From Candidatus Rokuibacteriota bacterium (GTDB lineage: Bacteria; Methylomirabilota; Methylomirabilia; Rokubacteriales; CSP1-6), in assembly GCA_050731715.1 (NCBI GenBank), contig JBOHPM010000001.1:1-39781 (forward strand): a DNA stretch of 39,781 bases. Reading direction: 5' to 3'. The position numbers and the translations under genes were made by a program. Under the pieces are notes generated by a model, which saw nothing but the letters and a program-made list of their open reading frames with translations, made no database searches and was not told the DNA's origin. Below are positions 3,321 through 32,197 of the stretch, piece after piece (the stretch's first letter is position 1; each line of letters starts with the position of its first letter).

Positions 3321-3503
3321 CTAGGGGTCGTCAAGAAAAAAGGTGCCCACCGGCTGTCCACAACGCCAGTTACCCACGTTGGCACGATCGAAGCGTGCAA
3401 GTCCTGCAAGACGCGAGCATTCCGTCGCCTCGCTCGGAGTGACGCCGATCGTCCGGGCCCTGTAGCGGATAGATCCCGCCGCGTGCGAGGCCAAGATCGT
3501 CAT
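3321..3503 (-). CDS. Small hypothetical ORF (60 aa) translationally coupled to the upstream gene
   Basis: Its ATG at 3503 overlaps the TGA of the 3500-4279 gene (ATGA). No recognisable family. Its 3' end overlaps a possible tRNA promoter region, so it may not be real. Confidence 0.3.
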   Translation of the reverse strand: MTILASHAAGSIRYRARTIGVTPSEATECSRLAGLARFDRANVGNWRCGQPVGTFFLDDP

Positions 3504-4279
3504 CCTTCGGCTGGCCCATCCAACTCGTCGCCCGGCAGGACAACCGGCGGCACTTTATCGGTGTCCGGCAAGCTGGCGAGCGCCGTCTTGACGATGTTCT
3601 CCATGCGGACGCGAGCGTCGCCCAAGTCGATCTTGAAGAACGCTGCCCAACGGGTAACGACGTCGGCGAAGGCCGTCGACGCGATGGTTACCACTTCGGA
3701 GACCATCGTGTCACTCGGACCGCTGCTGGCAATGAACCCCCGGGCGGTGACCGCCAGAAAGGACTCGAAGCTCGCCGCGTCGGAGTGCTCATAGATCGAA
3801 CCATGCCGGTAGGCCAGGTTGTAGAAGTTCTGGGTGTCGCTCCTGGCAGCGCGGTCGGCGAGGTTCAACCACTTCTTGGCAAGCTCTTCTTCTTCGCCCC
3901 AGTTAACGGTGTCGGCTTGCAGGGTTCGTCCGAGCGACGTTGCCCACCTGCGGAGCTGAATGCGCGCGGACGCAAGCCATACGCGGACCCGCTCCGGAGT
4001 GTCCGCAGCCGTGAGGTACGCAAGGTCAATGCAGAGGTTCGTAAGGCTGCGTGCCAGGATCATGGCGTCCTCGCCGTAGCCCTCGCGTGCAACAAGTAAG
4101 ATCGCGCCGAACGTCTTTCGAGCCTTCGCGTGCAGGAAGACGACAGCCAGCCTACCGCCGCCCTTCGCGGAGATGGGGTGCGCGGCGCGGATGTCCCGAT
4201 CAAGAGCAGCGAGGTCTTCGCAGGCCAGAAGCGCCGTGCCGTACCTCTCTCGGATTGCTGCTCGGACGTCGTTCGTCAT
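3500..4279 (-). CDS. Hypothetical protein, DUF5677-like (start moved to the internal ATG)
   Basis: ATG at 4279 is preceded by GAGGAAG with a 4-nt spacer. The track ORF extends to 4354, but those extra residues are R-rich. The helical protein contains ...FGAILLVAREGYGEDAMILARSLTNLCIDLAYL..., which resembles the DUF5677 core as I remember it. Confidence 0.65.
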   Translation of the reverse strand: MTNDVRAAIRERYGTALLACEDLAALDRDIRAAHPISAKGGGRLAVVFLHAKARKTFGAILLVAREGYGEDAMILARSLTNLCIDLAYLTAADTPERVRVWLASARIQLRRWATSLGRTLQADTVNWGEEEELAKKWLNLADRAARSDTQNFYNLAYRHGSIYEHSDAASFESFLAVTARGFIASSGPSDTMVSEVVTIASTAFADVVTRWAAFFKIDLGDARVRMENIVKTALASLPDTDKVPPVVLPGDELDGPAEG

Positions 4280-4512
4280 CGTGCTTCCTCGGCTTCGCGC
4301 GCGGCGTTGCAGTCGAACGGATCGTCCAGCGGTATCACGAGTATATCGTCGCAATCACGCCGCGGTGTCAACCTCTGGTGAACTGCTCTCGGGCTGATCG
4401 CGACGTGTCCTCCTCGATGCTCCTCCGGGTCTCACACGTTGGGCATTCTAGCGGACGCCTCTGGGGAAGATCGTCGCCGCCGCTGCTGTCGGTTGACGGG
4501 TGCCGGAGGATC

Positions 4513-5028
4513 TCATGTTCGGAATCGCACTGGTGGGGAGGGACCAAATCGTGATGACGAGGGAGGATTCCGCTGTTTGTCCGACCGCTTGCCGGTTTCC
4601 TCGATGGCCTGCGCGAATCGCTTCAGGTCACCGTCCCAATCATACGCGGGGAACTCGACGGTAGGCGGCACGGCCGGCTTCGGCCCGCGGAACGGGGAAG
4701 CCGCCATTCCGCGCTGGTCCTTCAGATGGTGAATGTAGATGCCGAGGAGGCCGTTGCTCCGCGCTATCGACTGCTCGATCTCGTACTGCACGTACGGGCG
4801 GTAGGCCGTTTGAGGTCCGATGAGGACCACGGTGACCGAAGTATTCTGAAGCTTCGCTCGGATCAACAGCTTGATCTCATCGTCGCCCTTGCGCTTGGCC
4901 TCCTCGTACTCGGAATGGTCGAAGAACCCGGCCACGTCGGGGCCGGCGACCACGTTCGCGTTGCGCACCTGGTTGGCACGCCAGATGTCGTTTTCGAAAT
5001 GGAACGAGAAGAACACTCGACGGGCCAT
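4513..5028 (-). CDS. TIR-like domain protein (ThsB-like / DUF1863 type)
   Basis: The N-terminus MARRVFFSFHFENDIWRANQVRN...VTVVLIGPQTAYRPYVQYEIEQSI is the characteristic TIR-like (MTH538/ThsB) pattern. It is the last gene of the 7943-to-4513 operon, 4 nt after the preceding gene. Confidence 0.85.
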   Translation of the reverse strand: MARRVFFSFHFENDIWRANQVRNANVVAGPDVAGFFDHSEYEEAKRKGDDEIKLLIRAKLQNTSVTVVLIGPQTAYRPYVQYEIEQSIARSNGLLGIYIHHLKDQRGMAASPFRGPKPAVPPTVEFPAYDWDGDLKRFAQAIEETGKRSDKQRNPPSSSRFGPSPPVRFRT

Positions 5029-5032
5029 AGGC

Positions 5033-5449
5033 TCATCTCCGGGAGAGGGTAATGATGATCGCGACGATCACGACGGCGATCGCCAGGTGAAGATAGAGAA
5101 CCGTTGGACGAAAAAGCGTCCCGAGCCAGCCTCGCAATCTTTTCCGCCGAGAGAGGTGCGGAGGGGCCAGCGAGTACGTCTTCCTCGTGCCGGCGCACAC
5201 TTCGTCGTAGACGGCCCGAAACCGTCGTTCCTGCCAGAGGTAGTAGGCGTCCAGGGCCCAGAAGATGGCGCTCGGGAAGAGCGCGAGCAGCGCGTACGAC
5301 CGCCGATGGGTATTGACAGCGAGCGCCATGAGCGCCGCCACGAGCGTGACCGACCAGCCTTTCAGGGCGAAGGAGTTCTGACCCATCCGGCTGATCACGC
5401 CCTGGACGAGCTTGAGGTGCTCGAGGCACGAGTACTCGTCGGCGTGCAC
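5033..5449 (-). CDS. Small membrane protein (predicted 3 TM segments), unknown family
   Basis: Hydrophobic segments are GWSVTLVAALMALAV, ALLALFPSAIFWALDAYYLW and VLYLHLAIAVVIVAIIITL. It is sandwiched between the two TIR-like genes with 4-nt gaps on each side. Confidence 0.75.
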   Translation of the reverse strand: MHADEYSCLEHLKLVQGVISRMGQNSFALKGWSVTLVAALMALAVNTHRRSYALLALFPSAIFWALDAYYLWQERRFRAVYDEVCAGTRKTYSLAPPHLSRRKRLRGWLGTLFRPTVLYLHLAIAVVIVAIIITLSRR

Positions 5450-5453
5450 GCTT

Positions 5454-6137
5454 TTAGCCGAGCAGCTTCTTCAGGTTTTCCCAGTCCCACTGATAGAGCC
5501 GCCCGGCGTTGGGGACGGGGGTATACGTCCCATCCCGGTATCCGATCATCTGCGCGATCGTGATCCCTTCCTCGCGGGCCATCCGCACCTCCTTCAGAAC
5601 GCCGGGCGCCCCGTATGTGTACCGGCCCACCATGACAAGAACGAGATCGGAACGGCTGATCGCCACCCGGGCCTTGTCCTCCCAGGCCTTCATCGGCGCC
5701 GCTTCCTTCAATGAGCTATCGATGACCTCGAACGGCGAGTCCGGGTTTCGAGCCTGGCCGATGATGAAGTCCTTCAGGACCTTGTCGTTGTCGAAATCGA
5801 AGCTGACGAACACGCGCTTCTTGCCCGTGCGCCTCTCGGGCCGCGAGGTGACATCCAACCCACGCGGAGTCTCAGTCGCGGTGGAACCGGATGCTGCGAT
5901 GGCTAGCGCCGCCAGTGTGCCGAGCCCGAGCAAGGCACCCCAGTTCACCTGTGGGGCGGGAAAGTACGGTCGCAGTTCAGGATGTTCGCCCGCGCGTAAC
6001 CAGACACCACGAACTGGGTCATAGAGCTGGTGCTCCGGGCGCAATTGCCCAGAGAGCGCGAGCTGCCGCCACTCGCTGATCGACCGGTACACCAGAGGTG
6101 GGCCGTATGGCCCGGGCAGGAAGCCAGACATGGCCAA
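5454..6137 (-). CDS. GYF_2-like N-terminal domain + TM helix + TIR-like (ThsB-like) domain protein
   Basis: The N-terminus ...YRSISEWRQLALSGQLRPEHQLYDPVRGVWLRAGEHPELRPYF is GYF_2/DUF4339-like. The TM helix is WGALLGLGTLAALAIAA. The C-terminus KKRVFVSFDFDNDKVLKDFIIGQ...LVLVMVGRYTYGAPGVLKEVRMA is TIR-like. Its start codon directly abuts the stop of the PIN gene (6137/6138). Confidence 0.85.
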   Translation of the reverse strand: MAMSGFLPGPYGPPLVYRSISEWRQLALSGQLRPEHQLYDPVRGVWLRAGEHPELRPYFPAPQVNWGALLGLGTLAALAIAASGSTATETPRGLDVTSRPERRTGKKRVFVSFDFDNDKVLKDFIIGQARNPDSPFEVIDSSLKEAAPMKAWEDKARVAISRSDLVLVMVGRYTYGAPGVLKEVRMAREEGITIAQMIGYRDGTYTPVPNAGRLYQWDWENLKKLLG

Positions 6138-6659
6138 TCACTCCTCCTTTATGAGCTCGTCGAACGGTCGCGGATCCATCTCGAAGCGGTTGTCTCGGAG
6201 TTGCACGCGCAGCGTCTCCGCCAGCGCCGTGGTGATCGCTCCGGCCCTGATCGCCGTCACCAGCGCGCCGACAGTGTCCAGCAAGTAGTTCTCCCCAAGC
6301 CGCGCGAACAGCTCCCGCCGGAAACGCCCCTTCTCATCGGCGGCAATCACCCACCGCCGGCTGACAGCGAGAGCAAGGGACGCGGACTCTCCATCTCCAA
6401 GAAATCGCCGAAACTCGTCGTACAGCAGGATCTCTCCCGACTCGGTAATCTCGATCTCCGTCACGACGCCGCTCTCGATCGCGGCCCGAAGTCGGCGACG
6501 CTGGTCCTCGTACTGGATCTCGGCGCTCACGTGGTTGACAACGTGGAACCGGAACTGCGGGAGCCCGCCCAGGATGTCCATCCGGTCCAGCACGAGGAAG
6601 TTGATGAGGAAGCTGGAGTCGGTGACCACCAGCAGGCGCCCATCGCCCCCTCGTTCCAC
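6138..6659 (-). CDS. PIN-domain protein (DUF3368-like)
   Basis: RLLVVTDSSFLINFLVLDRMDILGGL... shows the N-terminal acidic residue pattern of PIN nucleases. It lies 3 nt downstream of the XRE-ImmA gene. Confidence 0.75.
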   Translation of the reverse strand: MERGGDGRLLVVTDSSFLINFLVLDRMDILGGLPQFRFHVVNHVSAEIQYEDQRRRLRAAIESGVVTEIEITESGEILLYDEFRRFLGDGESASLALAVSRRWVIAADEKGRFRRELFARLGENYLLDTVGALVTAIRAGAITTALAETLRVQLRDNRFEMDPRPFDELIKEE

Positions 6660-6662
6660 CCC

Positions 6663-7943
6663 TCATGCACGCGGGACGTGGGCCCCTCGCCCGCTCTGTC
6701 CCGGCTCCGGCTCTTGCTTCACTGTCGCAACCAGCGCCTTGAACTCGCCCGACTGAACCTGCGCCAGATCGCAGAGCTCCCTCAGCTTCGCCCGGCTGAT
6801 GACCTCCCGGCGCAGCGCCTCAACCGCGAGCAGCACGAGCTGGTGCCGGAACGGCATGTGCCCAGGCGCCTTCGCGTCGGGCTCGGGCCCAAGGAAGCGC
6901 ATGACGTTGGCGGCGGCCTCCTTCTGCTGGACGAGCCCGCCCCGCTCCTCCTCGGTAACGAGCTTGAGATTCAGCAGCCGGTAGAGTGCCGTCTCGTAGC
7001 TCACGCTGAAGTGGTGGGCGAGGTGGGCGACGTCGTAGACCTGGATGTCCTGCGAGTGGGCCTCGCGGCGCCGCTGCCCCTCCACCACGGCGGTCTCGTC
7101 GTACGCCCGGAGCTGGCTCCGGCTCTGCTCGCCCTTGCCCAGCCGCCGGACGAAGGCGCGGACGCCCCCCTCGGGCATCAGAAAGGCCGCGGCAAAGGCA
7201 TTGGCCCGTACCTCGGGCAGCTCCTCGCGGTTTTCGGCCCGGCTCACGAGCCCTCCGCGGTCGTGGTCGACGAGGACATGGCAGTACTCGTGCGCGCACG
7301 AGAACAGCCGGCGCCGCGGCGGGTGATCCTCGTTCACGATGATCGACGGGCCGTACCGGGTGTCGCTCAGGAACAGGCCGGAGATCGTCTCGGACAACGA
7401 CATCTCGATGAACCGGACGCCCTGCGCCTCGAGGAGCTCGGCGAGGTTCGTCAGGGGATCTTCGCCCAGGCGAAGGCGCGCCCGCTCGAGCTCGGCCAAC
7501 CGCTCGCCCTGCCGGATGGCGTCCCAGCGCGTGCGCATGAGTGGGGTGTTGTAGTTGACATCGTAGACGCGGTCCTGGTCGATGCCGAGGAGCGTCTCCA
7601 GGTTCGTGTACTCCCGGCAGAGCTTGACGCACTCGGCGACGGCACCGGCCCGCTCACGGTCGCCCGCGAGCTGGGGGTCCGCCCGGAACAGTGCCGTAAG
7701 GGGATCGCGCTGGGCCTCGTCGAACTCTTCTGCCAGCAGTTCACCAAGCTCGCGCCGATAGATCTCGGCGAGCCGCACGAGGTGGAGGCTGTTCGGCGCC
7801 TTGGCGCCGGCTTCGAAATGCGCGAGGGCGCCGCGCGAGATGCCAAGCTGATCGGCGACGTCCTGCTGGGCGAGCCCCACCGCTTCCCTGGCGCTCTTCA
7901 AACGACGGCCCAACTCCTCCTTGTCCAAGGGCACTTGCGCCAC
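6663..7943 (-). CDS. XRE-family HTH fused to ImmA/IrrE (COG2856, M78) zinc metallopeptidase
   Basis: The HTH is LGRRLKSAREAVGLAQQDVADQLGISRGALAHFEAG. The HExxH motif is in FSCAHEYCHVLVDH. There is a GTG at 7943. A second in-frame GTG at 7934 has better spacing to AGGAGG and may be the true start. Confidence 0.9.
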   Translation of the reverse strand: MAQVPLDKEELGRRLKSAREAVGLAQQDVADQLGISRGALAHFEAGAKAPNSLHLVRLAEIYRRELGELLAEEFDEAQRDPLTALFRADPQLAGDRERAGAVAECVKLCREYTNLETLLGIDQDRVYDVNYNTPLMRTRWDAIRQGERLAELERARLRLGEDPLTNLAELLEAQGVRFIEMSLSETISGLFLSDTRYGPSIIVNEDHPPRRRLFSCAHEYCHVLVDHDRGGLVSRAENREELPEVRANAFAAAFLMPEGGVRAFVRRLGKGEQSRSQLRAYDETAVVEGQRRREAHSQDIQVYDVAHLAHHFSVSYETALYRLLNLKLVTEEERGGLVQQKEAAANVMRFLGPEPDAKAPGHMPFRHQLVLLAVEALRREVISRAKLRELCDLAQVQSGEFKALVATVKQEPEPGQSGRGAHVPRA

Positions 7944-7961
7944 CTCCTCTCTGGGTAACGG

Positions 7962-7974
7962 ATTATGGCATAAT
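7962..7974. promoter_or_regulatory. 13-bp palindrome ATTATG-G-CATAAT overlapping a -10-like CATAAT for the minus-strand operon (operator candidate)
   Basis: Perfect inverted repeat about 20-30 nt upstream of the operon start codons, in the divergent intergenic region 7944-8159. The first gene of the operon encodes an XRE HTH, so autoregulation is plausible. Confidence 0.4.
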
Positions 7975-8114
7975 TCTTCTCATGGCGCTACCAAGGCTTG
8001 GGCCGGCCGTCGCCGCGGATATGGGGCACCGAGCAGGATCAAAAGCGCTGGCTTGGAGGCTCTGATGCGAGTTGTCGGGCTGGCCGCGGGTAAGGGGTCG
8101 ACTCCCAGGGATGG

Positions 8115-8144
8115 TTGACAAAGGGGGCTCGGAGAGCCTATTTT
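8115..8144 (+). promoter_or_regulatory. Sigma70-like promoter TTGACA-18 nt-TATTTT for the AbiE pair
   Basis: TTGACA is at 8115-8120 and TATTTT at 8139-8144. The ATG at 8160 follows. Confidence 0.45.
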
Positions 8145-8159
8145 ACCCGTACGGTAAAA

Positions 8160-9212
8160 ATGGCATATACAGTAAAACTCAAGAAGGGCAGCGCCCTCGA
8201 AACTAGCGTCCTGGGCGCCCTGCGCGAGGTACTACCCGCTTTCAGGGTCGCCCAGGAACGCACCGGAAGGCAGGCGACCTGGGATCTGACGTTCACGGTC
8301 CGGTCGGGCAGCACCGCGCGGCGGCTCCTCGTCGAGTGCAAGTCCGTCGGCGAACCCAGGTACCTCGCCCAGGCGATCACCGTCCTCACGCTGGCATCCA
8401 AGAGGTCCCCCCTGGGCTACCCCGTTGTCGCCGCGCCCTACATCGGGCCCGAGGGACAGCGGCTCTGCCGCGAGGCCGGCGTCGGTTACCTGGATCTGAC
8501 GGGCAACGCCTTCCTCAAGTTCGACGGCGTCCTTGTGGACCGGCGAAGCGGTGAACACCCGCCGCGCGCCAAGGCGCGGCTCCGACGCCTCTTCTCCCCC
8601 AAGTCGTCCCGCATCCTCCGCGTCCTGCTCGAGAACCCCGACCAGGAGTGGACACTGGCGCGGCTCGCAACTGAAGCCGCGATCAGCGTGAGGACCGCCC
8701 ACCTCGTCATCAACGCGCTAGAGGAGAAGGCCTTCGTCGACAAGCGGCGTGGCGCCATCAGGCTCGAAAAGCCGGCGCCGCTCCTGGATCTCTGGACCGA
8801 GAACTATCGGCTCGACCAGCACCGCCGCCAGACCTTCTACAGCTTCGTCCGAAGTCCTCGGGAGCTGGCCGCCAAGCTCGCCGCCCAGACCACTGCCCAG
8901 CGCGTATCGCTGGCGCTTACGGTCCACGCGGGCGCTGCGCTTGTGGCCCCTTTCGTCCGCTACACTGACGTCCACGCGTACGTCTTGGACGACATCGATC
9001 GTCTCGTGAAGTCTCTTGATCTCCGCCCGACAGAAGCTGGCGGCAATGTTCACCTCCTCACGCCAAACGACGAAGGCGTCTTCTACAGAATCCAGACGAT
9101 CGACGGCGTTCCGGTGGTCTGCAACACCCAGCTCTTTCTCGACCTGCTCCACTACCCTGGGCGTGGCCGCGAGGCCGCCGAAGAGCTTCGCCGCCAGAAG
9201 ATGGGGTATTAG
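8160..9212 (+). CDS. abiEi: AbiEi-like type IV antitoxin/transcriptional regulator with an extra N-terminal domain
   Basis: The central winged-helix segment is SSRILRVLLENPDQEWTLARLATEAAISVRTAHLVINALEEKAFV. The C-terminal region ends ...CNTQLFLDLLHYPGRGREAAEEL, typical of AbiEi-type partners. It lies immediately upstream of an AbiEii NTase. The start is placed at the ATG at 8160 because the TTG at 8115 is the -35 hexamer. Confidence 0.7.
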   Translation: MAYTVKLKKGSALETSVLGALREVLPAFRVAQERTGRQATWDLTFTVRSGSTARRLLVECKSVGEPRYLAQAITVLTLASKRSPLGYPVVAAPYIGPEGQRLCREAGVGYLDLTGNAFLKFDGVLVDRRSGEHPPRAKARLRRLFSPKSSRILRVLLENPDQEWTLARLATEAAISVRTAHLVINALEEKAFVDKRRGAIRLEKPAPLLDLWTENYRLDQHRRQTFYSFVRSPRELAAKLAAQTTAQRVSLALTVHAGAALVAPFVRYTDVHAYVLDDIDRLVKSLDLRPTEAGGNVHLLTPNDEGVFYRIQTIDGVPVVCNTQLFLDLLHYPGRGREAAEELRRQKMGY

Positions 9213-9216
9213 GCGC

Positions 9217-10116
9217 GTGACGCCCAAACCCAGGACGGCCGGCGACTACGAAGACGATGCCACCGCCGCCTCTCGCCTCGGCTTGGCGGAGATCATGACC
9301 GCGCTCGGCGCCTACCGCGACGCTCTCGTGCTGATTGGCGGCTGGGCGCCGTATCTGATCCTCGAGCAGTTCGGGGAGCAGGGCGCCTTCCAGGCTGATG
9401 CATTTCAGGGCGACGCGTTCCAGACGGGATTTGCCCACGTCGGGTCGATCGACATCGACTTCGTGGTGGATCCCGCAATCGTCGACGCCGACCGCTACGC
9501 GACCATCGTGGAATCGCTGCTCGGCCGCGCTTACGAGCCCGTCAAGGATTCCCGCTTTCAGTTCCAGAAGATCGTCGCCTCCCCGCTGAACGGTCGGCCG
9601 CATCTGATCCGCGTGGACTTCCTGACGCCGAGGCCTCTCGCGGGACAGGGTCGCTCACACCGCCACCGCGAGATCCAACACGATCTCCAGGCGCGGACGC
9701 TTGAGGGCGCCGACGTCGCCCTCAGGCATTGGTTCTGGTACGAGTTCGACGCCCAGCTCCCCGACGGCGCCCAGACGCGCGTCCGTGTGAAAGTCGCCGA
9801 CGTCGTGGGAAGTCTCGCCCTCAAGGGCATCGCCATCGGTGAGCGTTACGCCGAGAAGGATGCTTACGATATCTGGGCGCTCTGCGCCCACTACCGCGGA
9901 GGACCCCCCGATGTTGCCGAGGCGCTTCGCCGGTGTCGAGACGAGGAGGCAGTGCGCCGAGGTCTCACCATGATCTCCGAGAAATTCCGCGCCCGCGATG
10001 CCGAGGGCCCCACATGGGTCGCAGTGTTCGTGGGCTCGGGGAGCGCTGAGGAATACGAACGGATTCGCACCGATGCTCACATGACAGTGGGCGAGGTGCT
10101 TCGCATTCTCGGTTGA
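9217..10116 (+). CDS. abiEii: AbiEii/AbiGii-family nucleotidyltransferase toxin
   Basis: LVLIGGWAPYLIL ... HVGSIDIDFVVD match the NTase G-G and DxD motifs of the AbiEii family. The GTG at 9217 is 5 nt after the abiEi stop, with an alternative ATG at 9295. The track ORF from 9016 overlaps abiEi and is rejected. Confidence 0.8.
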   Translation: MTPKPRTAGDYEDDATAASRLGLAEIMTALGAYRDALVLIGGWAPYLILEQFGEQGAFQADAFQGDAFQTGFAHVGSIDIDFVVDPAIVDADRYATIVESLLGRAYEPVKDSRFQFQKIVASPLNGRPHLIRVDFLTPRPLAGQGRSHRHREIQHDLQARTLEGADVALRHWFWYEFDAQLPDGAQTRVRVKVADVVGSLALKGIAIGERYAEKDAYDIWALCAHYRGGPPDVAEALRRCRDEEAVRRGLTMISEKFRARDAEGPTWVAVFVGSGSAEEYERIRTDAHMTVGEVLRILG

Positions 10117-10382: not shown

Positions 10383-13300
10383 GTGGGGAGACGGAGCTTT
10401 CCCAATGACAACACGAGTTTGATGCCGGCAGACGATACCGCTCTGCCCGAGCTCGGCCAGCTCGCCGAGGTCCGCCAGCGGCGTTGGATCGTCACCGACG
10501 TCCGTGCCAGTACGCTCATGCCCTCTCCTCTCGAACCCCCCAGCGCCAACGGTCACCACCACCTAGTCTCCCTCGCCTCCGTCGAGGACGACGGTCTGGG
10601 CGAGGAACTGCAGTTTATCTGGGAGCTTGAGCCCGGCGCGCGTGTCCACGAACGCGTCTCCCTGCCCGAGCCCACCGGGTTCGACACCTCCCACCGCCTC
10701 GACGCGTTCCTCGATGCCGTGCGGTGGGGCGCCAGCTCGACCGCCGACGTCCGGACGCTCCAGGCGCCGTTCCGGAGCGGCATCGAGATCGAGGACTATC
10801 AGCTCGACCCCGTCGTCCGTGCGATCCAGATGCCGCGCGTGAACCTCCTCATCGCCGACGATGTCGGGCTCGGCAAGACGATCGAGGCCGGACTCGTCAT
10901 CCAGGAGCTGATCGTCCGTCATCGGGCGCGGCGGGTGCTGATCGTCTGCCCGGCGTCGCTCCAGATCAAGTGGCAAACCGAGATGCGAGAGAAGTTCGGG
11001 CTCGACTTCCGCATCGTGGATGCCGATCTGCTCAAGCAGCTCCGCCGCCAGCGCGGCCTGCATGCGAATCCGTGGACGCACTTCCCCCGGCTGATTGCCT
11101 CCCTCGACTTCGTCAAACGGGAGCGCCCCTTGCGCCTCCTGCGCGAGGCGCTGCCGGCCCCTGGCCAGCCGGCCTACCCGCGGCGCTTCGACTTCCTCGT
11201 CGTGGACGAGGCGCACAACGTCGCACCGTCAGGACGTGGACGGTATGCCACCGACTCGCTGCGAACGCATGCGATCCGGACGATCGCCCCACACGCGGAG
11301 CACAAGCTTTTCGTCAGCGCGACGCCCCACAACGGCTACCTCGAAAGCTTCACGGCGCTCCTCGAGCTGCTCGACAACCAGCGCTTCGCCCGCAGCGTGA
11401 AGCCGGATCGGCAGCAGCTCAACGCGGTCATGGTTCGCCGCCTGAAGTCAGAGCTTCCCCCGCGCTGGGATGGCACACCCCGCTTCCCGGGTCGCGTCAT
11501 CGAGCCGATCGAGGTCGACTACACCGATGCCGAGCGGGCCGTGCATGCTGCACTCCAGCGCTACAGCATGCTGCGGCAAGAGCGGGCGCGTGATCACGTC
11601 GAGCGCTTCGCCTCGGAATTCGTCCTGCTGCTTCTCAAGAAACGACTTTTCTCCTCGCCTGCGGCATTCCAGAAGACGCTCTCGCAGCATGAGCAGTCGA
11701 TAACGGCCGCCCGTCGGCGCCGGAGTGCACTCGAAACACCGACGCTCGGCGTCCTCCGGCGCATCGTGGACAAGGTCGACGAGGAGTATGGCGACGACAG
11801 CGCGGCCGATGATGCTGTCGACGAGGCGGTTGACGGTGCCTCGCGGCTCTTCTCCGACCTGAGCGGAGAGGAACGCGATCTCCTTCAGAGCATGCGCGAG
11901 GCGGCGGCGACTGCTGTAGGCCGTCCCGACTCCAAGGCACACGAGCTGATCCGCTGGCTCAACGCCACGCTCCGCCCTGCCGGCACGTGGTCGCACGAGC
12001 GCGTGATCATCTTCACGGAGTACCGGGCAACCCAGAGCTGGCTTCACGAGCGCCTGGCGATGGAGGGCCTCGCTGGCAACGACCGCTTGCTGACGCTCTA
12101 CGGCGGCATGGACGACAAGACCCGCGAAACCGTCAAGGCTGCGTTCCAGGCCGACCCAGCTACCTCGCCCGTGCGTATCCTGCTTGCCACCGATGCGGCC
12201 TCCGAAGGCATCGACCTCCAGCGTTACTGCTCCCGCCTCGTTCACTACGAGATCCCGTGGAACCCGAACCGGATGGAGCAGCGCAACGGGCGAATCGACC
12301 GCCACGGCCAACGCGCGGAATGCGTGCTGGTTTACCACTTCGTCGGTAAGGGCTACCGCGAGCGGGCAGAGGGCGACGCGCTTCCGACGGGCCAGCTCGA
12401 GGGCGACCTGGAGTTCCTCGCACGGGCCACCATCAAGATCGACCGCATTCGGCAGGACCTTGGCACGGTGGGGCCTGTCATCGCCCAGCAGGTGGAAGAG
12501 GCGATGCTCGGTCGTCGCCAGCGTCTCGATACCGAGGGGGCTGAGCGCCGCGCCGAACCCGTTCGTGCCATGCTTCGGTTCGAGCGGCGGCTGCGTGAAC
12601 AAATCGCCGAGCACCTCGAGCAACTACAAGAAACTCGCCGCGAGCTACGGCTCTCGCCGGACAACGTCCAGGCCGTTGTCGAGATCGCGCTGGCGCTCGC
12701 CGGCCAGCCACCCCTCCGGGAGGCCACGCTGCCGGGCGTCTGGCCCGATCCCACGGCGCAGCGCACCCGCTGCCCCGTGTTCCACCTCCCGGCGCTCGGC
12801 GGGACGTGGGCGCTTTGCTCCGAGGGGCTCCAGCACCCTCACACCGGCGTGGTTCGACCGATCACTTTCGACCACGCGATCGCCGGCGACAGGGACGACG
12901 TCGTGCTTGCCCACCTGAACCACCGGCTCGTCCAGATGTGCCTGCGCCTCCTGCGCGGCGAGGTGTGGGCAAGTCACCGCCGCAAGCGCCTGCACCGCGC
13001 GACGGCGCGCGTCGTGCCCGACACCGCTCTCGACACTCCGGCCATGATCGGCCACGCGCGCCTCGTCGTGGTCGGAGGCGACAGCCAGCGGCTGCACGAG
13101 GAGGTGATTACCACCGGCGGTCGCCTCCGCGAGGGGCGCTTCGCTCGGATGAACGTCGGCGAGGTGGCCTCGGCCCTCGCCGCCGCAGGCGATACAGAGC
13201 CGGCCGAGGCGGTCAAGCAGCGTCTTCTCGATCTCTGGCCACGTCATGCCGATGCGCTCGTCGCCGCCTTGGAGGCCCGCATGCGCGACCGCACTGACGG

Positions 13301-13610
13301 CCTCCAGAAGGCCCTCGCCGACCGGGCTGAGCAGGAAATCCAGACGATCACTGCCGTGCTCACCGAGCTGCGTCAGAGCATCCTCGCCGAGATCGAGGCC
13401 CCGTCCGTTGAGCAGCTGGAACTGTTCTCGTCCGCCGAGCGCGATCAGCTCGACCGGAACCTCGCGAGCCTCCGCGCCCGCGCCGAGCGCATCCCAGCAG
13501 AGATCGCGGAGGAGACCGAAGCTATCCGCGCGCGCTTCGCGCGCCCGGAGCCCCGGCTCTTCCCGGTGGCCGTGACGTTCCTCGTGCCCGAGCGGTTCGC
13601 CAGGGGTTGA
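10383..13610 (+). CDS. drmD: DISARM class 1 SNF2-family helicase DrmD
   Basis: SNF2 motifs present are LLIADDVGLGKTIEAG (I), LVVDEAHNV (II), LLATDAASEGIDLQ (V) and WNPNRMEQRNGRIDRHGQ (VI). It is followed by a translationally overlapped large N6-MTase and then drmA/B/C. The start is uncertain (GTG 10383 or ATG 10422). Confidence 0.9.
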   Translation: MGRRSFPNDNTSLMPADDTALPELGQLAEVRQRRWIVTDVRASTLMPSPLEPPSANGHHHLVSLASVEDDGLGEELQFIWELEPGARVHERVSLPEPTGFDTSHRLDAFLDAVRWGASSTADVRTLQAPFRSGIEIEDYQLDPVVRAIQMPRVNLLIADDVGLGKTIEAGLVIQELIVRHRARRVLIVCPASLQIKWQTEMREKFGLDFRIVDADLLKQLRRQRGLHANPWTHFPRLIASLDFVKRERPLRLLREALPAPGQPAYPRRFDFLVVDEAHNVAPSGRGRYATDSLRTHAIRTIAPHAEHKLFVSATPHNGYLESFTALLELLDNQRFARSVKPDRQQLNAVMVRRLKSELPPRWDGTPRFPGRVIEPIEVDYTDAERAVHAALQRYSMLRQERARDHVERFASEFVLLLLKKRLFSSPAAFQKTLSQHEQSITAARRRRSALETPTLGVLRRIVDKVDEEYGDDSAADDAVDEAVDGASRLFSDLSGEERDLLQSMREAAATAVGRPDSKAHELIRWLNATLRPAGTWSHERVIIFTEYRATQSWLHERLAMEGLAGNDRLLTLYGGMDDKTRETVKAAFQADPATSPVRILLATDAASEGIDLQRYCSRLVHYEIPWNPNRMEQRNGRIDRHGQRAECVLVYHFVGKGYRERAEGDALPTGQLEGDLEFLARATIKIDRIRQDLGTVGPVIAQQVEEAMLGRRQRLDTEGAERRAEPVRAMLRFERRLREQIAEHLEQLQETRRELRLSPDNVQAVVEIALALAGQPPLREATLPGVWPDPTAQRTRCPVFHLPALGGTWALCSEGLQHPHTGVVRPITFDHAIAGDRDDVVLAHLNHRLVQMCLRLLRGEVWASHRRKRLHRATARVVPDTALDTPAMIGHARLVVVGGDSQRLHEEVITTGGRLREGRFARMNVGEVASALAAAGDTEPAEAVKQRLLDLWPRHADALVAALEARMRDRTDGLQKALADRAEQEIQTITAVLTELRQSILAEIEAPSVEQLELFSSAERDQLDRNLASLRARAERIPAEIAEETEAIRARFARPEPRLFPVAVTFLVPERFARG

Positions 13611-16600
13611 GCGTGTCCGTCGCCCGCCACCACGTCGAGTGGCTGTCGCTGGTCGAGACCTCCGGGCCCTTCCTCTCGATGCCGGTGCTCTTGCGCGCGT
13701 TCCCGCAGGAGCTCGACAAGGCGGATGCGGACCACACGCGGAGCCTCCGCCTCGCGCACGAGGAGTGGGAGGAGAGCCAGGAGCGGCATCCTGATCCGGC
13801 CTTTCACACTGCGTGGGTTCGCTTCGTCCTGACGGAAACTCTCGGGCTTCCCACCGAGGTATTAGCCGAGGGTCCCCGCATGCCGGCGGGCCTCCGCGTG
13901 ATGGTCGCCGAGCACGGGGAGGTCCTTGCACCCGATCTCGTCGTCGTGAACCCCGATGGGACACCTGGCGCCGGGAGACCCCGCCTCCTCGTTCAGGTCT
14001 ACCCCGCCAGGCAAGACCTCCGCCGTGCTGTCGCGGCATCCCGCTGGAAGGTCTCGCCCGAAACGCGAATGGTCGAACTGCTGCGAGGAACCGACACGCG
14101 GCTCGGCCTAGTAACGAACGGCGAGCACTGGATGCTCGTCTCGGTCCGCCCCGGCGAGCCCGCGGGCTTCGCCTCGTGGTACGCCGCACTCTGGCTCGAG
14201 GAGCCGCTCACGCTCCGGGCCTTCCGGAGCCTGCTCGGCGCCCACCGGTTCTTCTCCGTCGCCGAGAGCGAGACTTTGGAGGCGCTGCTCGCCGAGAGCG
14301 CCGCGGACCAGCAGGAGGTCACGGATCAGCTCGGCTTGCAAGTGCGGCGTGCCGTCGAACTGCTCGTGGCCGCCCTCGACCGTGCCGACCGCGATCACGG
14401 CCGCGCCCTGTTGCGCGACGTGCCAGACGCCCGCCTGTACGAAGCTGCGGTGACGGCTATGATGCGGCTCGTCTTCCTCTTCGCCGCAGAGGAGCGCGGC
14501 TTGCTCCTGTTGGGCGATCCGCTCTACGACCAGCACTACGCGATTTCCACGCTCCGCGCACAGCTGCGCGAGACGGCCGACCGGCACGGCGAGGAGGTGC
14601 TGGAGCAGCGCATCGACGCGTGGTGCCGGCTGCTCGCCACGTTCCGTACGGTTCACAGCGGCATGCGTCACGACCGGCTGACGCTCCCCGCCTACGGCGG
14701 CTCGCTCTTCGACCCCGACCGCTTCCCGTTCCTCGAGGGGCGCGGCGAGGGAACGTCGTGGCGGACGACGGCAGCCGCTCCCCTCCCCGTGAACAACCGC
14801 ACGGTGCTTCACCTCCTCGAGGCCCTCCAGATGCTGGAGGTACGCCTCCCCGGCGGCGGCCCCGCCGAGGCCCGGCGCCTCAGCTTCCGCGCGCTCGACA
14901 TCGAGCAGATCGGCCACGTCTATGAGGGGCTCCTCGACCACACCGCCGCCCGCGCCCCCACCCCCGTGATCGGCCTCGTCGGCACGCGTGAGGGCGAGGC
15001 CGAGGTCCCGCTCGATTCGCTGGAACGATTGCGCGCGGATGGCGAGGCCCGGCTCGTTGAGTTCCTGTCTGAAGAGACCGGGCGTCAGCCGACGACGATC
15101 CGCCGGGCACTGGCCTACGAGCCGGTTGGTGAGGATGTCCATCGCCTGCTCGTTGCCTGCGATAACGACGAACGTCTGGAGCGCCGCGTGCGGCCGTTCG
15201 CCGGCCTCGTGCGCGAGGACACGCGCGGCTATCCAGTGGTGATCCCGCCGGGCAGCGTGTACGTCACGCGCGGCAGCGACCGGCGCACCACGGGCACCCA
15301 CTACACCCCGCGGAGTCTCACCGAGCCGATCGTCCGCTACACGCTGGAACCTCTCGTATACGAGGGCCCCGCCGAGGGGTGGCGGCGTGAGGAGTGGCGC
15401 CTGCGGCCCGCGCGCGACCTCTTTGCCCTTCGCGTCTGCGACATGGCGATGGGCTCGGGCGCCTTTCTCGTTCAGGTGTGCCGATTTCTCTCGGAACGTC
15501 TGGTCGAGGCTTGGGAGGAAACCGAGCGCCAGCATCCGGGCGCGCCTGGCATCACCCCGGAGGGCGCGGTCGCGACAGGGGCGGCGGAGGAGCGGCTCAT
15601 CCCGAAGGACACAGAGGAGCGGCTGGCGCTCGGCCGCCGCCTCGTTGCCGACCGCTGCCTCTACGGCGTGGACAAGAACCCCATGGCCGTGGAGATGGCC
15701 AAGCTCTCGCTCTGGCTTGTTACGCTCCAGAAGGACCGGCCGTTCACGTTCCTCGACCACGCGCTCAAGTCCGGCGACTCTTTGCTGGGCGTCACCAGCG
15801 CCGAGCAGATCGAATGGGCGCACCTGGACCCTCAAAAAGGCCGTCAGCTTCCATTTTGGGCCGCGCTCTGCGCGCCAGCCCTCCGCACGGCGGTCGAAAA
15901 GCGCCGCCAACTCGAGTCGTTCACGGTCGAAACTGTCGTCGATGCCGAAGAGAAGGCGCGTCTCTTGCGCGAGGCGGAGGCTGCCCTCGGTGTCGTCAGG
16001 CTGATCGGTGACCTGATCGTTGGTGCCGGGCTCTCAACGGCGGGGAAGAAAGCCAGCGCTCTCGACGAACGACTCGATGAGATCGGGGAGTTGGTCCGCA
16101 AGACTCTCTCGCCGGCGACACCGACTACCGAGCGCGAGACGCAACTGCTTGCTCTTCGCGAGCGCGCGCGAACGATGCTCGGCATAGCCGGTAGTGCTTC
16201 ACCGGTACCCTTTCACTGGGCGCTGGAGTTCCCCGAGATTTTCGACGCGACGAGGAACGAGCGCTGTGGCTTCGATGCAATCGTCGGCAACCCGCCGTTC
16301 CTTACCGGAACCTCCATAAGTACCTTCCTAGGTCCCAGTTACCGTGCTTATCTCAATTTGGTCTGGCCGCACCTCCACGGGCGTGCCGATCTCTGTGTCG
16401 TATTCATGCTGAGAGGCGCTCAGCTTTGTCCACCAAAGGGCGCGATGGGGTTTGTCGGCTCCAACACGACCTCAGAAACTGATTCTCGCCTCTCTGGACC
16501 TGCCTACCTGTTGAGCTGTGGGTTTTCGATCTACCGTGCTGTGAAGTCCCAGCCGTGGCTAGGCGGCGCCTCGGTTCATGTGTGCCAAGTCCACTACTAT

Positions 16601-17716
16601 AACGGCTCCTGGCGTGGGGCCTATGTTCTGGATGGCGTAGTCACCGCCTCGATCAACTCATCGCTCGATGCAGCACAGGAAGGGCCCGAACCTCACACCC
16701 TTCTCGCAAGCAAAGCGAAGTCATACACGGGAACTAAGGTTTACGGCGAAGGGTTCATTGTCGCCGACGACGAGGCCCTCACGCTCCTTTCGGCTGCGCC
16801 AGAGTACTCACGCGTCGTGAAGCCGTTCCTGATCGGCCGCGAGGTTAACGAGCATCCCGAATGTGCACCCTCACGATATGTCATTGACTTCACAGGTATG
16901 ACAGCGGAGCAAGCGAAGCAATACCCCTTGGCCTGGAGAATTGTTGACGAACGAGTTAGACCCCAGCGACAGTCCGCCCCGGAAAGCAGGATGAGGCGCG
17001 TCTGGTGGCAGTTCCAACGTCCTCGTCTCGCCCTCTATGAACGCCTCCGTACGCTTGGCGTCGCGTGGATTGTCGCGGCCACCAGCGACACTGTTGCATT
17101 TGTTGGTCTACGAATAGGTCCGGAACGCCCTCTTATCCTCTCGCACGCCGTGAACGTCATGTCTCTCGACGGATACGGCGAGTTCGCCGTTGTCCAGAGC
17201 TCGATTCATCTAACATGGGCGCGGCGCTACGGCTCAACTCTGAAAGGCGATTTTCGATACACAACGACCGATTGCTTCGACACGTTTCCATTTCCGGAAC
17301 GGACGCTGGATCTCGAGGCAGCTGGTAAGTCCTATCATGAGTACCGGCAGAACGTGATGCGCACTCGAGGGGAAGGACTAACAGCTGTCTATCGCCGTTT
17401 CAATGATGCAACCGAATCGGGAGTCGACATACTTCGGTTGCGCAGCCTCCACGCCGACGTGGACCGCGGCGTCGCTGCCGCCTACGGCTGGACCAGCCTC
17501 GATCTCGGGCACGGCTTCCACGAGACGAAGCAAGGCCTCCGCTTCACCATCAGTGAGCCCGCCCGCCAGGAAGTCCTGGCCCGCCTCCTCCACCTTAACC
17601 ACGCCCGCTATGCCGACGAGCTCCGCCGTGGCCTTCATGCCAAGAAGAGCCGCAGTCGCCGGAACGATCAGGCCGATGGGGACGCGCTGTTCGAACTGGA
17701 CCGGGACAACGAATAG
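13607..17716 (+). CDS. drmMI: DISARM class 1 N6-adenine DNA methyltransferase DrmMI (Eco57I-like, 1369 aa)
   Basis: Motif I is VCDMAMGSGAFLV and motif IV is AIVGNPPFLTG. The TTG at 13607 overlaps the drmD TGA (TTGA), with an alternative GTG at 13613. Confidence 0.9.
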   Translation: MSVSVARHHVEWLSLVETSGPFLSMPVLLRAFPQELDKADADHTRSLRLAHEEWEESQERHPDPAFHTAWVRFVLTETLGLPTEVLAEGPRMPAGLRVMVAEHGEVLAPDLVVVNPDGTPGAGRPRLLVQVYPARQDLRRAVAASRWKVSPETRMVELLRGTDTRLGLVTNGEHWMLVSVRPGEPAGFASWYAALWLEEPLTLRAFRSLLGAHRFFSVAESETLEALLAESAADQQEVTDQLGLQVRRAVELLVAALDRADRDHGRALLRDVPDARLYEAAVTAMMRLVFLFAAEERGLLLLGDPLYDQHYAISTLRAQLRETADRHGEEVLEQRIDAWCRLLATFRTVHSGMRHDRLTLPAYGGSLFDPDRFPFLEGRGEGTSWRTTAAAPLPVNNRTVLHLLEALQMLEVRLPGGGPAEARRLSFRALDIEQIGHVYEGLLDHTAARAPTPVIGLVGTREGEAEVPLDSLERLRADGEARLVEFLSEETGRQPTTIRRALAYEPVGEDVHRLLVACDNDERLERRVRPFAGLVREDTRGYPVVIPPGSVYVTRGSDRRTTGTHYTPRSLTEPIVRYTLEPLVYEGPAEGWRREEWRLRPARDLFALRVCDMAMGSGAFLVQVCRFLSERLVEAWEETERQHPGAPGITPEGAVATGAAEERLIPKDTEERLALGRRLVADRCLYGVDKNPMAVEMAKLSLWLVTLQKDRPFTFLDHALKSGDSLLGVTSAEQIEWAHLDPQKGRQLPFWAALCAPALRTAVEKRRQLESFTVETVVDAEEKARLLREAEAALGVVRLIGDLIVGAGLSTAGKKASALDERLDEIGELVRKTLSPATPTTERETQLLALRERARTMLGIAGSASPVPFHWALEFPEIFDATRNERCGFDAIVGNPPFLTGTSISTFLGPSYRAYLNLVWPHLHGRADLCVVFMLRGAQLCPPKGAMGFVGSNTTSETDSRLSGPAYLLSCGFSIYRAVKSQPWLGGASVHVCQVHYYNGSWRGAYVLDGVVTASINSSLDAAQEGPEPHTLLASKAKSYTGTKVYGEGFIVADDEALTLLSAAPEYSRVVKPFLIGREVNEHPECAPSRYVIDFTGMTAEQAKQYPLAWRIVDERVRPQRQSAPESRMRRVWWQFQRPRLALYERLRTLGVAWIVAATSDTVAFVGLRIGPERPLILSHAVNVMSLDGYGEFAVVQSSIHLTWARRYGSTLKGDFRYTTTDCFDTFPFPERTLDLEAAGKSYHEYRQNVMRTRGEGLTAVYRRFNDATESGVDILRLRSLHADVDRGVAAAYGWTSLDLGHGFHETKQGLRFTISEPARQEVLARLLHLNHARYADELRRGLHAKKSRSRRNDQADGDALFELDRDNE

Positions 17717-17728
17717 CCGAGGGGCCAT

Positions 17729-19948: not shown

Positions 19949-20341
19949 GGCGCCCCCCTTGCGATCGCGACCACCGGGGAGACCGCGCGTGACCGTCCTT
20001 GTCACAGTGAGGTTGGATACGGGGAACTGCCATGCGGGATGACGAGACCTGGGTAGGCCGAAGAGCACTTCCGTCGCTTCGCCGTGGCCTATGATTAATC
20101 AATCCCGCCAGAGGAAGGTCCTGATGTCGGCCTGCTCCCGCCTGAGCCCCTTCCGTTGGGCCGGAAGCCGAGCGCACCGAGTGGCATCCCGGACTACGCC
20201 GACACGGAGGACCTCGTGTGAAGACTCCAACGCGATTTCAGGGTCTCGAGCTGCCCACCCCGGCCATGTCGACCGCATGGCGTGGGAACATCCCCCAAGA
20301 GACCGATGCCCGTGACCGTTCTCGGCTAAACTCTCCGCACT

Positions 20342-23300: not shown

Positions 23301-23875
23301 TGCTCAACTGGGTGCGCCCGCGCGACTTCTCGCACTACGAGCGTTTCGAGCACTACCACGCCACGTTCTACAAGCATGTCGAGGCGCTGTCAGTCACGCC
23401 CTTCGCGCCGCGCGCGATCGACCGGGGCCTCACGGCGCTCCTCGTCTCCTGCATTCGGCTCATGGGCATGGAGTTCAACGAGAACCTCCGAGCGGGACGG
23501 ATCACGCTCGATCACCCGTACGTGCGGGCCGCGGTCGAGCACATCGCCCGCCGGGCGCACCTCGTTGGCCAAGGGGCGGCCGTCGAGCAGCTCGTCCGTG
23601 CGGAGCTCGAGAAGCGGCTGGACGAATGGCACGCCGAAGCCCAGCGGGGCACCGGCGGCCGCCGTCTCGGGTATCGAGACACGAGAGACGGGCTGACCGT
23701 CGGCCTGCTCCGTCGGCCCGGGCGCGAGCCGTGGCACGACTTCACGTGCCTCAACTCGCTCCGCGACGTCGAGCCCGAGGTCGGGTTGGTCCTCGACGAT
23801 CGCGGACTGGACGACGAAACCACGGCGGTTCCGGTTGTTCCCGCCGGTGACGACGACGAGAAGACCGAGCCGTGA
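20342..23875 (+). CDS. drmA: DISARM helicase DrmA (DEAD/DEAH-box, 1177 aa)
   Basis: The Walker A motif is WFPTGGGKTEAYLG and the DExH motif is LIIQDELHLISGPLG. The helicase C motifs are LLATNMLSVGVDVRRLGLMVVAGQPKTTAEYIQATSRVGR. It overlaps the drmB start. Confidence 0.9.
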   Translation: MADAVLQPPSSWQVRDELEEAVTRDLLGPAGGPEEEIEDAPRDRYLVGMLAPRRQLLAPETFDDLAVGGEGTVEEGSVDINAPQATTMFPSSFGMTFCVAGSTTAIQLAVRWGRYERIESAVLKNEAGNPRRVWKRRPIEGTSTPISLKSGLLKWTVTTEFPEVTVQGLVRLQQHDWIVTLFLVNGQEEPKQLRDSAWLFQPELIVITPDKAPAFLRRPQNLDPAHTDAEDLAMAMIYRKHVEFAVGHGVSVHADRSPGDIDRAARLSTRVVPVGEVPQVTAPSSADLPGLCGLVRDMKMLAETAPADFAARLGPLVVAYREWIQAQTARITDAESGLGQFQDTAHVAIQRCREAIERIEAGVSLLGTSAPAAEAFRFLNRAMWRQRIHSLFAEKVRRGEDVALEALDVAENRSWYPFQLAFILLNLPALTDLHHPERADEQQATADLLWFPTGGGKTEAYLGLAAYTMALRRLQGAVAGREGEPGVAVLMRYTLRLLTLQQFQRAATLLCACEAIRREALEAGDARWDKTPFRIGLWVGQRATPNTTEQSAEAVRQAHGHFHRATIAGGVGSPAQLTNCPWCGARIEPGQHIRVETRTGGRGRTITYCGDRLGRCLFSERQAPGEGLPVVVVDEEIYRLLPAMLVATVDKFAQMPWNGATQMLFGQVDGRCPRHGFRSPEIEDSDSHPARGTLPAARTEPANPVRPPDLIIQDELHLISGPLGTLVGLYETAVDRLMTWEVDGKPVRPKVIASTATIRRAPDQVHALFVRRVRVFPPHGLDVEDNFFALQRTPSPDHPGRRYLGICAPGRRLKAVLIRTYVAFLAASQQLYEKYGRAADPWMTLVGYFNAMRELGGMRRLVDDDVRTRLAKADRLGLAVRAIFYDTVDELTSRKGGTDIPQVLDALEAPFDPALETKCRAMLKTGQREGLPRKPLDVLLATNMLSVGVDVRRLGLMVVAGQPKTTAEYIQATSRVGRAAPGLVCTVLNWVRPRDFSHYERFEHYHATFYKHVEALSVTPFAPRAIDRGLTALLVSCIRLMGMEFNENLRAGRITLDHPYVRAAVEHIARRAHLVGQGAAVEQLVRAELEKRLDEWHAEAQRGTGGRRLGYRDTRDGLTVGLLRRPGREPWHDFTCLNSLRDVEPEVGLVLDDRGLDDETTAVPVVPAGDDDEKTEP

Positions 23876-32116: not shown

Positions 32117-32197
32117 CCCCGGCCACGACATCCCAAAAAATCCCGCCGAATCCCTTGAAAACCGTCAGCGTGGCGTCAGCACGATCCTTCCCGCCGC

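Follow-up and report, generated by a model that had tools for sequence, protein, structure and literature searches.

Which effector do two TIR proteins of the Thoeris type serve when no ThsA lies beside them? The question is raised by a three-gene cassette in a 39,781-nucleotide stretch of DNA (the window) from a metagenome-assembled genome of Candidatus Rokuibacteriota bacterium (GenBank assembly GCA_050731715.1, contig JBOHPM010000001.1, positions 1 to 39,781). The three open reading frames lie on the minus strand with intergenic gaps of 4 nt each, and they encode, in the direction of transcription, a TIR protein with an N-terminal extension (TIR2), a 138-aa membrane protein and a second TIR protein (TIR1). 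Their coordinates were recovered exactly as in the original prediction, which had been made from the DNA letters (Table 1), and the ThsB-type TIR matches and the helical membrane protein were recovered with them; the cassette is real. The absence of a ThsA-type partner was also borne out, as the Pfam and PADLOC scans around the cassette revealed no SIR2-SLOG protein and no SLOG or Macro domain in any protein scanned. A hidden ThsA elsewhere in the window was considered and rejected: the sole SIR2_2 protein lacks SLOG and lies 26 kb off, beside an integrase. We propose that the cassette is very probably a type V Thoeris anti-phage system in which two ThsB genes flank thsF. This assignment is based on the homology of the 138-aa protein to ThsF, the matches to the PADLOC models PDC-M50A and PDC-M50B, the family-wide linkage to TIR genes, the gene order, the conserved catalytic glutamates and family-invariant residues, the helical membrane architecture and the defence-island context.

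A recent preprint (Yirmiya et al., bioRxiv 10.64898/2025.12.03.692087, December 2025) defined Thoeris types V to XI, and the following background is taken from it. Type V combines a ThsB TIR protein with ThsF, which is labelled DUF2270 and crosses the membrane with three helices. The type V system of Bacillus thuringiensis DAR 81934 (hereafter Bt) was shown to protect against phages in a B. subtilis host. Its TIR protein makes the cyclic ADP-ribose (cADPR) isomer 3'cADPR upon infection, and added 3'cADPR, not other isomers, is toxic only in cells carrying the system, which is inhibited by the Tad1 sponge. In the AlphaFold 3 model, ThsF forms a homo-heptameric, channel-like ring with basic pockets between the protomers.

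We located the reference ThsF through the Bt ThsB sequence in Table S1 of the preprint, which led to a 100%-identical protein (P0269) and to its contig. Directly downstream of P0269 lies a gene for a 141-aa protein with three transmembrane (TM) segments (L084:3773-4198), and the upstream gene encodes a soluble 271-aa protein. The IMG gene identifiers of the Bt TIR and effector are consecutive (effector IMG 2624526260; bioRxiv 10.64898/2025.12.03.692087), and the 141-aa gene directly follows the validated ThsB; therefore, we take it to be Bt ThsF. Another route, through plasmid homologs of Bt ThsB in B. cereus and Priestia (L081, L082), was abandoned because these homologs stand in type I-like or type II-like contexts without a TM gene.

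By sequence comparison, the 138-aa protein of the window is a clear homolog of ThsF. BLASTP aligned it to the Bt 141-aa protein with 38% identity over 130 aa (E 6e-33), and hhalign matched its family profile to the same protein with a probability of 100% (E 1.9e-46). It also matches the PADLOC model PDC-M50A at 4e-38. By the standard that the original prediction had set itself, clear homology to another described effector, the view that no such effector is adjacent therefore has to be given up, and the premise of novelty was wrong as well, because the pair already bears a name as a candidate in PADLOC-DB v2. In that candidate, PDC-M50, component A is a small TM protein and component B is TIR-like, and the two models match adjacent genes of the window, the second one matching TIR1 at 1.2e-45. 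PDC-M50 is a two-gene computational candidate without an assigned mechanism, whereas the window adds a third gene, that of TIR2. A literature search for "PDC-M50" found no mention of it.

The 138-aa protein has no match in Pfam, NCBIfam or the PDB sequences. Its AlphaFold2 model is all-helical with a mean predicted local distance difference test (pLDDT) score of 94 and contains helices at residues 3-47, 50-55, 57-86, 101-112 and 115-137; no PDB fold resembled it (best Foldseek E 1.2). When 19-residue windows were scored against a hydropathy threshold of 1.6, residues 27-45 and 110-138 exceeded it. The middle helix was placed at about residues 52-72 from the AlphaFold2 helices 50-55 and 57-86 and from the hydrophobic segment 53-73 of Bt ThsF, and the hydropathy pattern as a whole matches that of Bt ThsF. 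The family-invariant residues Arg21, Asp67 and Glu74 are present. In the family, Arg21 is invariant and Lys30 and Arg78 are nearly so, which is compatible with a basic pocket. A search for SLOG, Macro or SAVED folds in Pfam, NCBIfam, the PDB and Foldseek found none. Its identification as a SLATT, Macro, SLOG or SAVED protein was rejected on the same sequence and fold comparisons. Pfam detected SLATT neither in the window protein nor in 34 + 146 homologs, a result that covers Pfam matches only and leaves room for a very remote relationship, and no Macro domain was detected by Pfam in the window protein or these 180 family members.

As a separate observation, the only weak Pfam match of Bt ThsF is to PF24838, "8xMP" (E 0.012), a family of octameric membrane proteins. 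The same model is matched by two further members of the ThsF family, and this may hint at an oligomeric fold.

The association of this protein family with TIR genes extends far beyond the window. The close relatives of the 138-aa protein number 283, none with a Pfam domain. In a profile search, the family grew to 5781 clusters (50% identity). The GTDB species-representative genomes, from many bacterial phyla and several archaea, contain 472 loci. Neighbourhoods were counted in the best 80 of the GTDB loci. Among 115 immediate same-strand neighbours of thsF genes, 55 contain ThsB_TIR, 28 contain TIR_2, and a few contain SLOG families. With eight TIR seed sequences, a TIR gene was found to adjoin thsF in at least 59 of the 80 loci and on both sides in 8 of them; of the other loci, several are truncated at a contig end or show, on inspection by eye, neighbours that resemble TIR genes. 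A Bt-like ThsB also adjoins a 136-aa ThsF homolog on a Klebsiella conjugative plasmid. The ThsF module also occurs at the C-terminal end of longer proteins. One of these (P0130) begins with a SLOG domain (LD_cluster2, residues 10-198, 1.7e-15), which is followed by the ThsF module at 244-375; the N-terminal parts of two others (P0128 and P0186) have no Pfam match. Such a SLOG-ThsF fusion is what one would expect of an output module downstream of a nucleotide sensor.

These data also bear on the most sceptical explanation, namely that the cassette has no role in defence and consists of DUF1863 proteins with housekeeping functions next to a small membrane protein that is unrelated to them. The Rokuibacteriota are uncultured, and the cassette is known here from its genes alone, which leaves such an explanation some ground. 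However, the cassette is directly homologous to a validated system, it lies within a defence island, and the linkage between TM and TIR genes holds across bacterial and archaeal phyla. We consider this explanation scarcely credible.

TIR1 is clearly a TIR of the ThsB type. It matches the Pfam family ThsB_TIR (PF08937) with 79.7 bits (2.2e-22; gathering cut-off 21.2), the PADLOC ThsB1 model at 2.2e-49 and the solved ThsB structures 6lhy and 9b7d in a PDB sequence search at E 7e-24. Glu83 in its YEI motif aligns with the YEI glutamate of B. cereus MSX-D12 ThsB (Glu85, counted along the sequence). The original prediction had proposed a check for catalytic glutamates in both TIR domains, and the outcome was positive for both: for TIR1 by this alignment to the B. 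cereus protein and for TIR2 by conservation among homologs.

TIR2 is more divergent. Its match to PF08937 is marginal (22.9 bits against the cut-off of 21.2), 27 of 28 of its homologs match the same family, and its family profile retrieved nothing from the solved structures at E<=0.01. The AlphaFold2 model of TIR2 retrieved bacterial TIR and ThsB structures in Foldseek (8fz9 at E 3e-6, followed by 8wcf, 9b7d and 6lhy), and the TIR fold is thus confirmed at the level of the predicted model; together with its homologs and its catalytic residue, this makes TIR2 a firm TIR. Glu183, in the motif LKEV, is nearly invariant across the 28 homologs and aligns with the WEI or AEL motif of ThsB TIRs associated with type IV Thoeris. 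The C-terminal 123 residues share about 80% identity with a standalone 124-aa TIR that is very abundant and occurs across phyla.

This 124-aa TIR occurs with several partners. A version that is 78% identical to the TIR domain of TIR2 adjoins a SIR2_2-STALD protein, which has the architecture of ThsA. The same type is also paired with a SLOG-patatin protein plus two further TIRs, and it occurs in a set of several TIRs plus an LD_cluster3 SLOG protein. Counting ThsF, this ThsB-type TIR is wired to at least four effectors (loci L086-L092 and L095-L100). The TIR2 subfamily has no exact match among the rows listed of Table S1 of the preprint.

The arrangement of two TIR genes around thsF is not peculiar to the window; thsF often lies between two TIR genes that belong to different clades. 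In Leptospirillum ferriphilum and in a Burkholderiales-type metagenome contig (L086-L092), a 124-aa TIR, a 147-aa ThsF-like protein and a 162-aa ThsB are encoded in this order, so that a TIR2-type protein, ThsF and a TIR1-type protein follow one another as in the window; the order and the three families are the same. The difference is in the first TIR, which in Leptospirillum is a bare 124-aa domain without the N-terminal extension of about 100 residues found in the window. Between the window and the Leptospirillum cassette, the TIR2-type TIR domains are 83% identical, whereas the ThsF proteins are 42% identical (over 72 aa) and the downstream TIRs are 44% identical. Such conservation is unusual for a presumed phage sensor.

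Whether both TIRs work with ThsF can be judged from related loci. In the cassettes most closely related to that of the window (L093 and L094), the genes for TIR2 and ThsF are preceded by two further genes that are described below, and TIR1 is absent; TIR2 can therefore be the sole partner of ThsF. These relatives would be expected if only TIR2 served ThsF and TIR1 were decaying, independent or part of another system. However, TIR1 is intact according to its Pfam score, its gene begins 4 nt after thsF, TIR1-type genes are the commonest partners of thsF elsewhere (42 of 67 TIR neighbours), and the three-gene order recurs in distant lineages. A cassette with one functional TIR thus seems unlikely to us, and both TIRs would presumably feed ThsF. 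The two TIRs, being of different clades, probably widen the range of phages that can be sensed with one shared effector.

If these particular proteins act as their homologs in the preprint do, which we infer by analogy, the system would work as follows. Upon phage infection, one or both TIRs would turn NAD+ into a cADPR isomer with the use of Glu83 and Glu183. The signal would bind to pockets on the cytosolic face of an oligomeric ThsF. ThsF would then disrupt the membrane, and the infected cell would die or stop growing before phages are released. The original prediction had left a choice between an effector that disrupts the membrane in response to a TIR product and TIR domains that act directly as NADases at the membrane. 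The evidence favours the former, given the homology of the 138-aa protein to a validated ThsF, and the latter found no support.

In its fuller form, the NADase explanation holds that the TIRs are themselves the effectors and deplete NAD+ at the membrane, with the 138-aa protein as a scaffold, sensor or anchor. The catalytic glutamate in both TIRs and a possible membrane association of TIR2 are compatible with it, and the preprint remarks that TIRs could be NADase effectors where their configuration is not a verified one (bioRxiv 10.64898/2025.12.03.692087). However, the configuration of ThsB with ThsF is verified in the same preprint, where the TIR alone makes the signal and the toxicity of 3'cADPR requires the system. 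The SLOG-ThsF fusions place ThsF downstream of a nucleotide signal, and TIR1 is a standalone 171-aa protein of the ThsB type without the sensor or oligomerisation domain of NADase effectors. This explanation is therefore very unlikely.

The cassette can be compared with several known systems. The effector of the Bt type V system is likewise a three-helix membrane protein of about 140 aa from the same family, encoded beside a TIR gene in a defence island. However, Bt has one ThsB, which belongs to another TIR clade (the IFISHSH type, 252 aa), whereas in the window a ThsB gene stands on either side of thsF; the two ThsBs are of other clades, one has a GYF_2-like and hydrophobic N-terminus, and the host is an uncultured Rokuibacteriota bacterium. 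Type I Thoeris of B. cereus MSX-D12 has a ThsB that is a close homolog of TIR1, with the catalytic glutamate kept, and probably the same signal, 3'cADPR; it differs in its SIR2-SLOG effector, which the window lacks, and by analogy the output in the window would be membrane disruption and not NAD+ depletion. Type II (TM-Macro) and type VII (with the SLATT effector ThsH) resemble the window in that a membrane-spanning protein kills the cell once a TIR-made signal has activated it. The signals are His-ADPR in type II and canonical cADPR in type VII (bioRxiv 10.64898/2025.12.03.692087), and the window ThsF and its family lack the Macro and SLATT domains of these effectors. The caspase-associated type IV, which uses N7-cADPR, is related through TIR2, whose TIR domain shares 37-44% identity with TIRs of the type IV clade; however, no caspase-like gene is found in the window, and the partner is ThsF.

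Some observations weigh against the reading proposed here. The 138-aa protein does not match PF10028 (DUF2270) even at E<=10, though the preprint labels ThsF with this family. The validated Bt ThsF does not match PF10028 in the same copy of Pfam either, and the family is weakly matched by 7 of 34 and 8 of 146 ThsF-family members (best E 1.4e-5). The DUF2270 label thus reflects a remote relationship that some cluster representatives show, and it cannot tell members of the family from non-members. Anchoring of TIR2 in the membrane, discussed below, is supported by a borderline hydropathy score and a model of low confidence. The other two points concern the signal: the TIR domain of TIR2 is 44% identical (E 6e-32) to one TIR and 37% identical to another, both listed under type IV Thoeris and the first of them with a caspase effector, and a type V variant from Bacillus sp. 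1NLA3E is not triggered by 3'cADPR (bioRxiv 10.64898/2025.12.03.692087).

By analogy with the characterised proteins, we lean towards 3'cADPR as the signal in the window, with considerable reserve. It is favoured because TIR1 is closest to the 3'cADPR-making ThsB of B. cereus, because Bt ThsF responds specifically to 3'cADPR, and because a TIR of the TIR2 type pairs with a ThsA-like SIR2-STALD protein. The same architecture could instead operate with another signal, ThsF being gated by N7-cADPR, canonical cADPR or an isomer not yet described, or the products of the two TIRs could differ, with only one of them activating ThsF. The type IV TIRs that TIR2 resembles make N7-cADPR (bioRxiv 10.64898/2025.12.03.692087), which together with the 1NLA3E variant and the pairing of TIR2-type TIRs with several different effectors speaks for such a signal. 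The kinship of TIR1 with B. cereus ThsB and the specificity of Bt ThsF oppose it, one of the paired effectors has the SIR2_2-STALD architecture of ThsA, and the related contigs with TIR2 and ThsF alone require that the product of TIR2 be able to activate ThsF. We regard another signal as a realistic possibility, though the less probable one.

Only about a dozen close relatives share the extension at the N-terminus of TIR2 (residues 1 to about 104). It consists of a small alpha/beta unit, a hydrophobic stretch at residues 64-82 and a variable linker. In the AlphaFold2 model, the alpha/beta unit comprises a helix at 20-29 and strands at 37-40 and 45-48, with block-mean pLDDT values of 55-84 over residues 11-60. 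The original prediction of a GYF_2-like domain followed by a membrane anchor was weakly supported. What stood is that the extension is a real coding region under constraint. Compared with the L093 homolog, the ratio of nonsynonymous to synonymous substitution rates was 0.23 in the N-terminal unit, 0.33 in the hydrophobic stretch, 0.42 in the linker and 0.077 in the TIR domain, which indicates purifying selection. The domain name and the anchor fared less well: GYF_2 (PF14237) was not matched by the window protein and was weakly matched by 3 of 28 homologs (best E 0.047), and the segment 64-82 scores just above the hydropathy threshold (Kyte-Doolittle 19-residue maximum of 1.69) in a part of the model where confidence is low. 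The hydrophobic character of this segment is kept in about 12 relatives.

A hydrophobic segment is an atypical feature among such TIRs; a comparably hydrophobic 19-residue segment was found in 1 of 67 other thsF-adjacent TIRs, and that one is doubtful. A protein of the same TIR clade as TIR2 (P0498) has a different, Gly-rich hydrophobic N-terminus. In the window, lysine and arginine residues flank the segment 64-82 with 7 on the C-terminal side and 2 on the N-terminal side, and this charge bias predicts a cytoplasmic TIR domain. TIR2 may have gained a lineage-specific GYF_2-like domain and hydrophobic segment that hold it at the membrane beside ThsF, and it would then presumably be membrane-bound. 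It is also conceivable, though rather unlikely, that TIR2 is a membrane-spanning, receptor-like ThsB with the GYF_2-like domain outward, a single helix and a cytoplasmic TIR, in the topology of Toll-like receptors. Such a protein would sense envelope events such as phage adsorption or injection and would make the signal right beside the ThsF channel. We leave this open because of the N-out/C-in charge bias, the purifying selection on the extension, the rarity of hydrophobic segments among other thsF-adjacent TIRs and the N-terminus of P0498.

Table 1. Coordinates of the cassette, its subfeatures and other genes of the window.
Feature	Position	Strand	Description
thsB (TIR1)	4513..5028	-	171 aa; ThsB1/DUF1863-type TIR signal synthase; catalytic Glu83 codon 4780-4782
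thsF	5033..5449	-	138 aa; three-helix membrane effector, type V Thoeris (very probable)
thsB' (TIR2)	5454..6137	-	second TIR signal synthase with N-terminal extension; 227 aa from TTG 6137, or 225 aa from ATG 6131 (NCBI start)
TIR domain of TIR2	5457..5825	-	residues 105-227; catalytic Glu183 codon 5589-5591
Hydrophobic segment of TIR2	5892..5948	-	residues 64-82; putative membrane anchor
Small alpha/beta N-terminal domain of TIR2	5958..6095	-	residues ~15-60; GYF_2-like
PIN-like gene	6138..6659	-	173 aa; weak DUF3368; PADLOC PDC-S70
HTH + M78 peptidase gene	6663..7943	-	426 aa; RmrA/ImmA-like
DUF5677 gene	3500-4354	-	3.5e-15; downstream of TIR1, same strand, ~160-nt gap
AbiEi/AbiEii-like pair	8115-10116	+	AbiEi_2-like regulator of 365 aa, then overlapping open reading frame
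drmD	10383-13610	+	class 1 DISARM-like
drmMI	13607-17716	+	class 1 DISARM-like
GmrSD_N + Schlafen/AlbA_2 gene	17729-19948	+	739 aa; PADLOC HEC-05; inserted between drmMI and drmA
drmA	20342-23875	+	class 1 DISARM-like
drmB	23872-25740	+	class 1 DISARM-like
drmC	25542-26546	+	class 1 DISARM-like
SIR2_2 protein	32198-33445		without SLOG; beside integrase
KwaB-like protein	34203-35120

Two genes lie upstream of TIR2 on the same strand and are packed as tightly as the cassette itself. The first, PIN-like, matches PADLOC PDC-S70 at 1.6e-7, and DUF3368 was weakly detected in its L093/L094 homolog. The second combines a helix-turn-helix domain (HTH_3, 1.3e-10) with a Pfam Peptidase_M78 domain (2.5e-21) and matches the PADLOC models RmrA (1.2e-28) and capP (5.5e-14). 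Both genes are kept upstream of TIR2 and thsF in L093 and L094, and no homolog of either was found in 80 other thsF loci. As they are conserved in close relatives only, we rejected them as general components of Thoeris. The PIN-like gene is probably a separate module, and the HTH-M78 gene either serves the PIN-like gene as antitoxin or regulator or regulates the operon. The pair possibly resembles RosmerTA, or it may be an operon regulator in the style of CapH/CapP. A scan of positions 4200-8300 for promoter and terminator consensus sequences was uninformative: the counts differed from the means of shuffled sequences by no more than about one standard deviation (promoter-like, 1 against 0.4 ± 0.7; terminator-like, 3 against 2.0 ± 1.4), and no position could be interpreted.

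The cassette is embedded in a defence island, with class 1 DISARM, AbiE-like, RmrA-like and GmrSD-like genes within 20 kb. The DISARM-like set is complete and spans 10383-26546 on the plus strand. The AbiEi/AbiEii-like pair is divergent from the HTH-M78 gene and likely represents a type IV toxin-antitoxin or Abi system; the match of its overlapping open reading frame to the AbiEii nucleotidyltransferase is below threshold (22.0 bits against a cut-off of 22.5). Further along the window, two tyrosine integrases flank or adjoin the SIR2_2 and KwaB-like genes (30773-35120 and 37104-38213), and the G+C content drops to 0.58-0.63. These regions may be a separate integrated element with its own defence genes.

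In this study, a cassette that looked like a pair of TIR genes without a ThsA-type partner was assigned to an already described system type, type V of December 2025. Its unusual features are the possibly tethered ThsB and the very high conservation of the TIR domain of that protein across effectors. The case also holds a warning for annotation. Pfam PF10028 and NCBIfam miss both the window ThsF and Bt ThsF; therefore, such cassettes are called "TIR plus hypothetical protein" and look like orphan TIRs. For specialists, the point of interest is a 124-aa TIR that stays about 80% identical across phyla while it is used with at least four effectors, and that in one lineage gained a possible membrane anchor. 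Neither this conservation nor the possible anchor alters the basic picture, in which type V Thoeris very probably extends to the uncultured phylum Rokuibacteriota.

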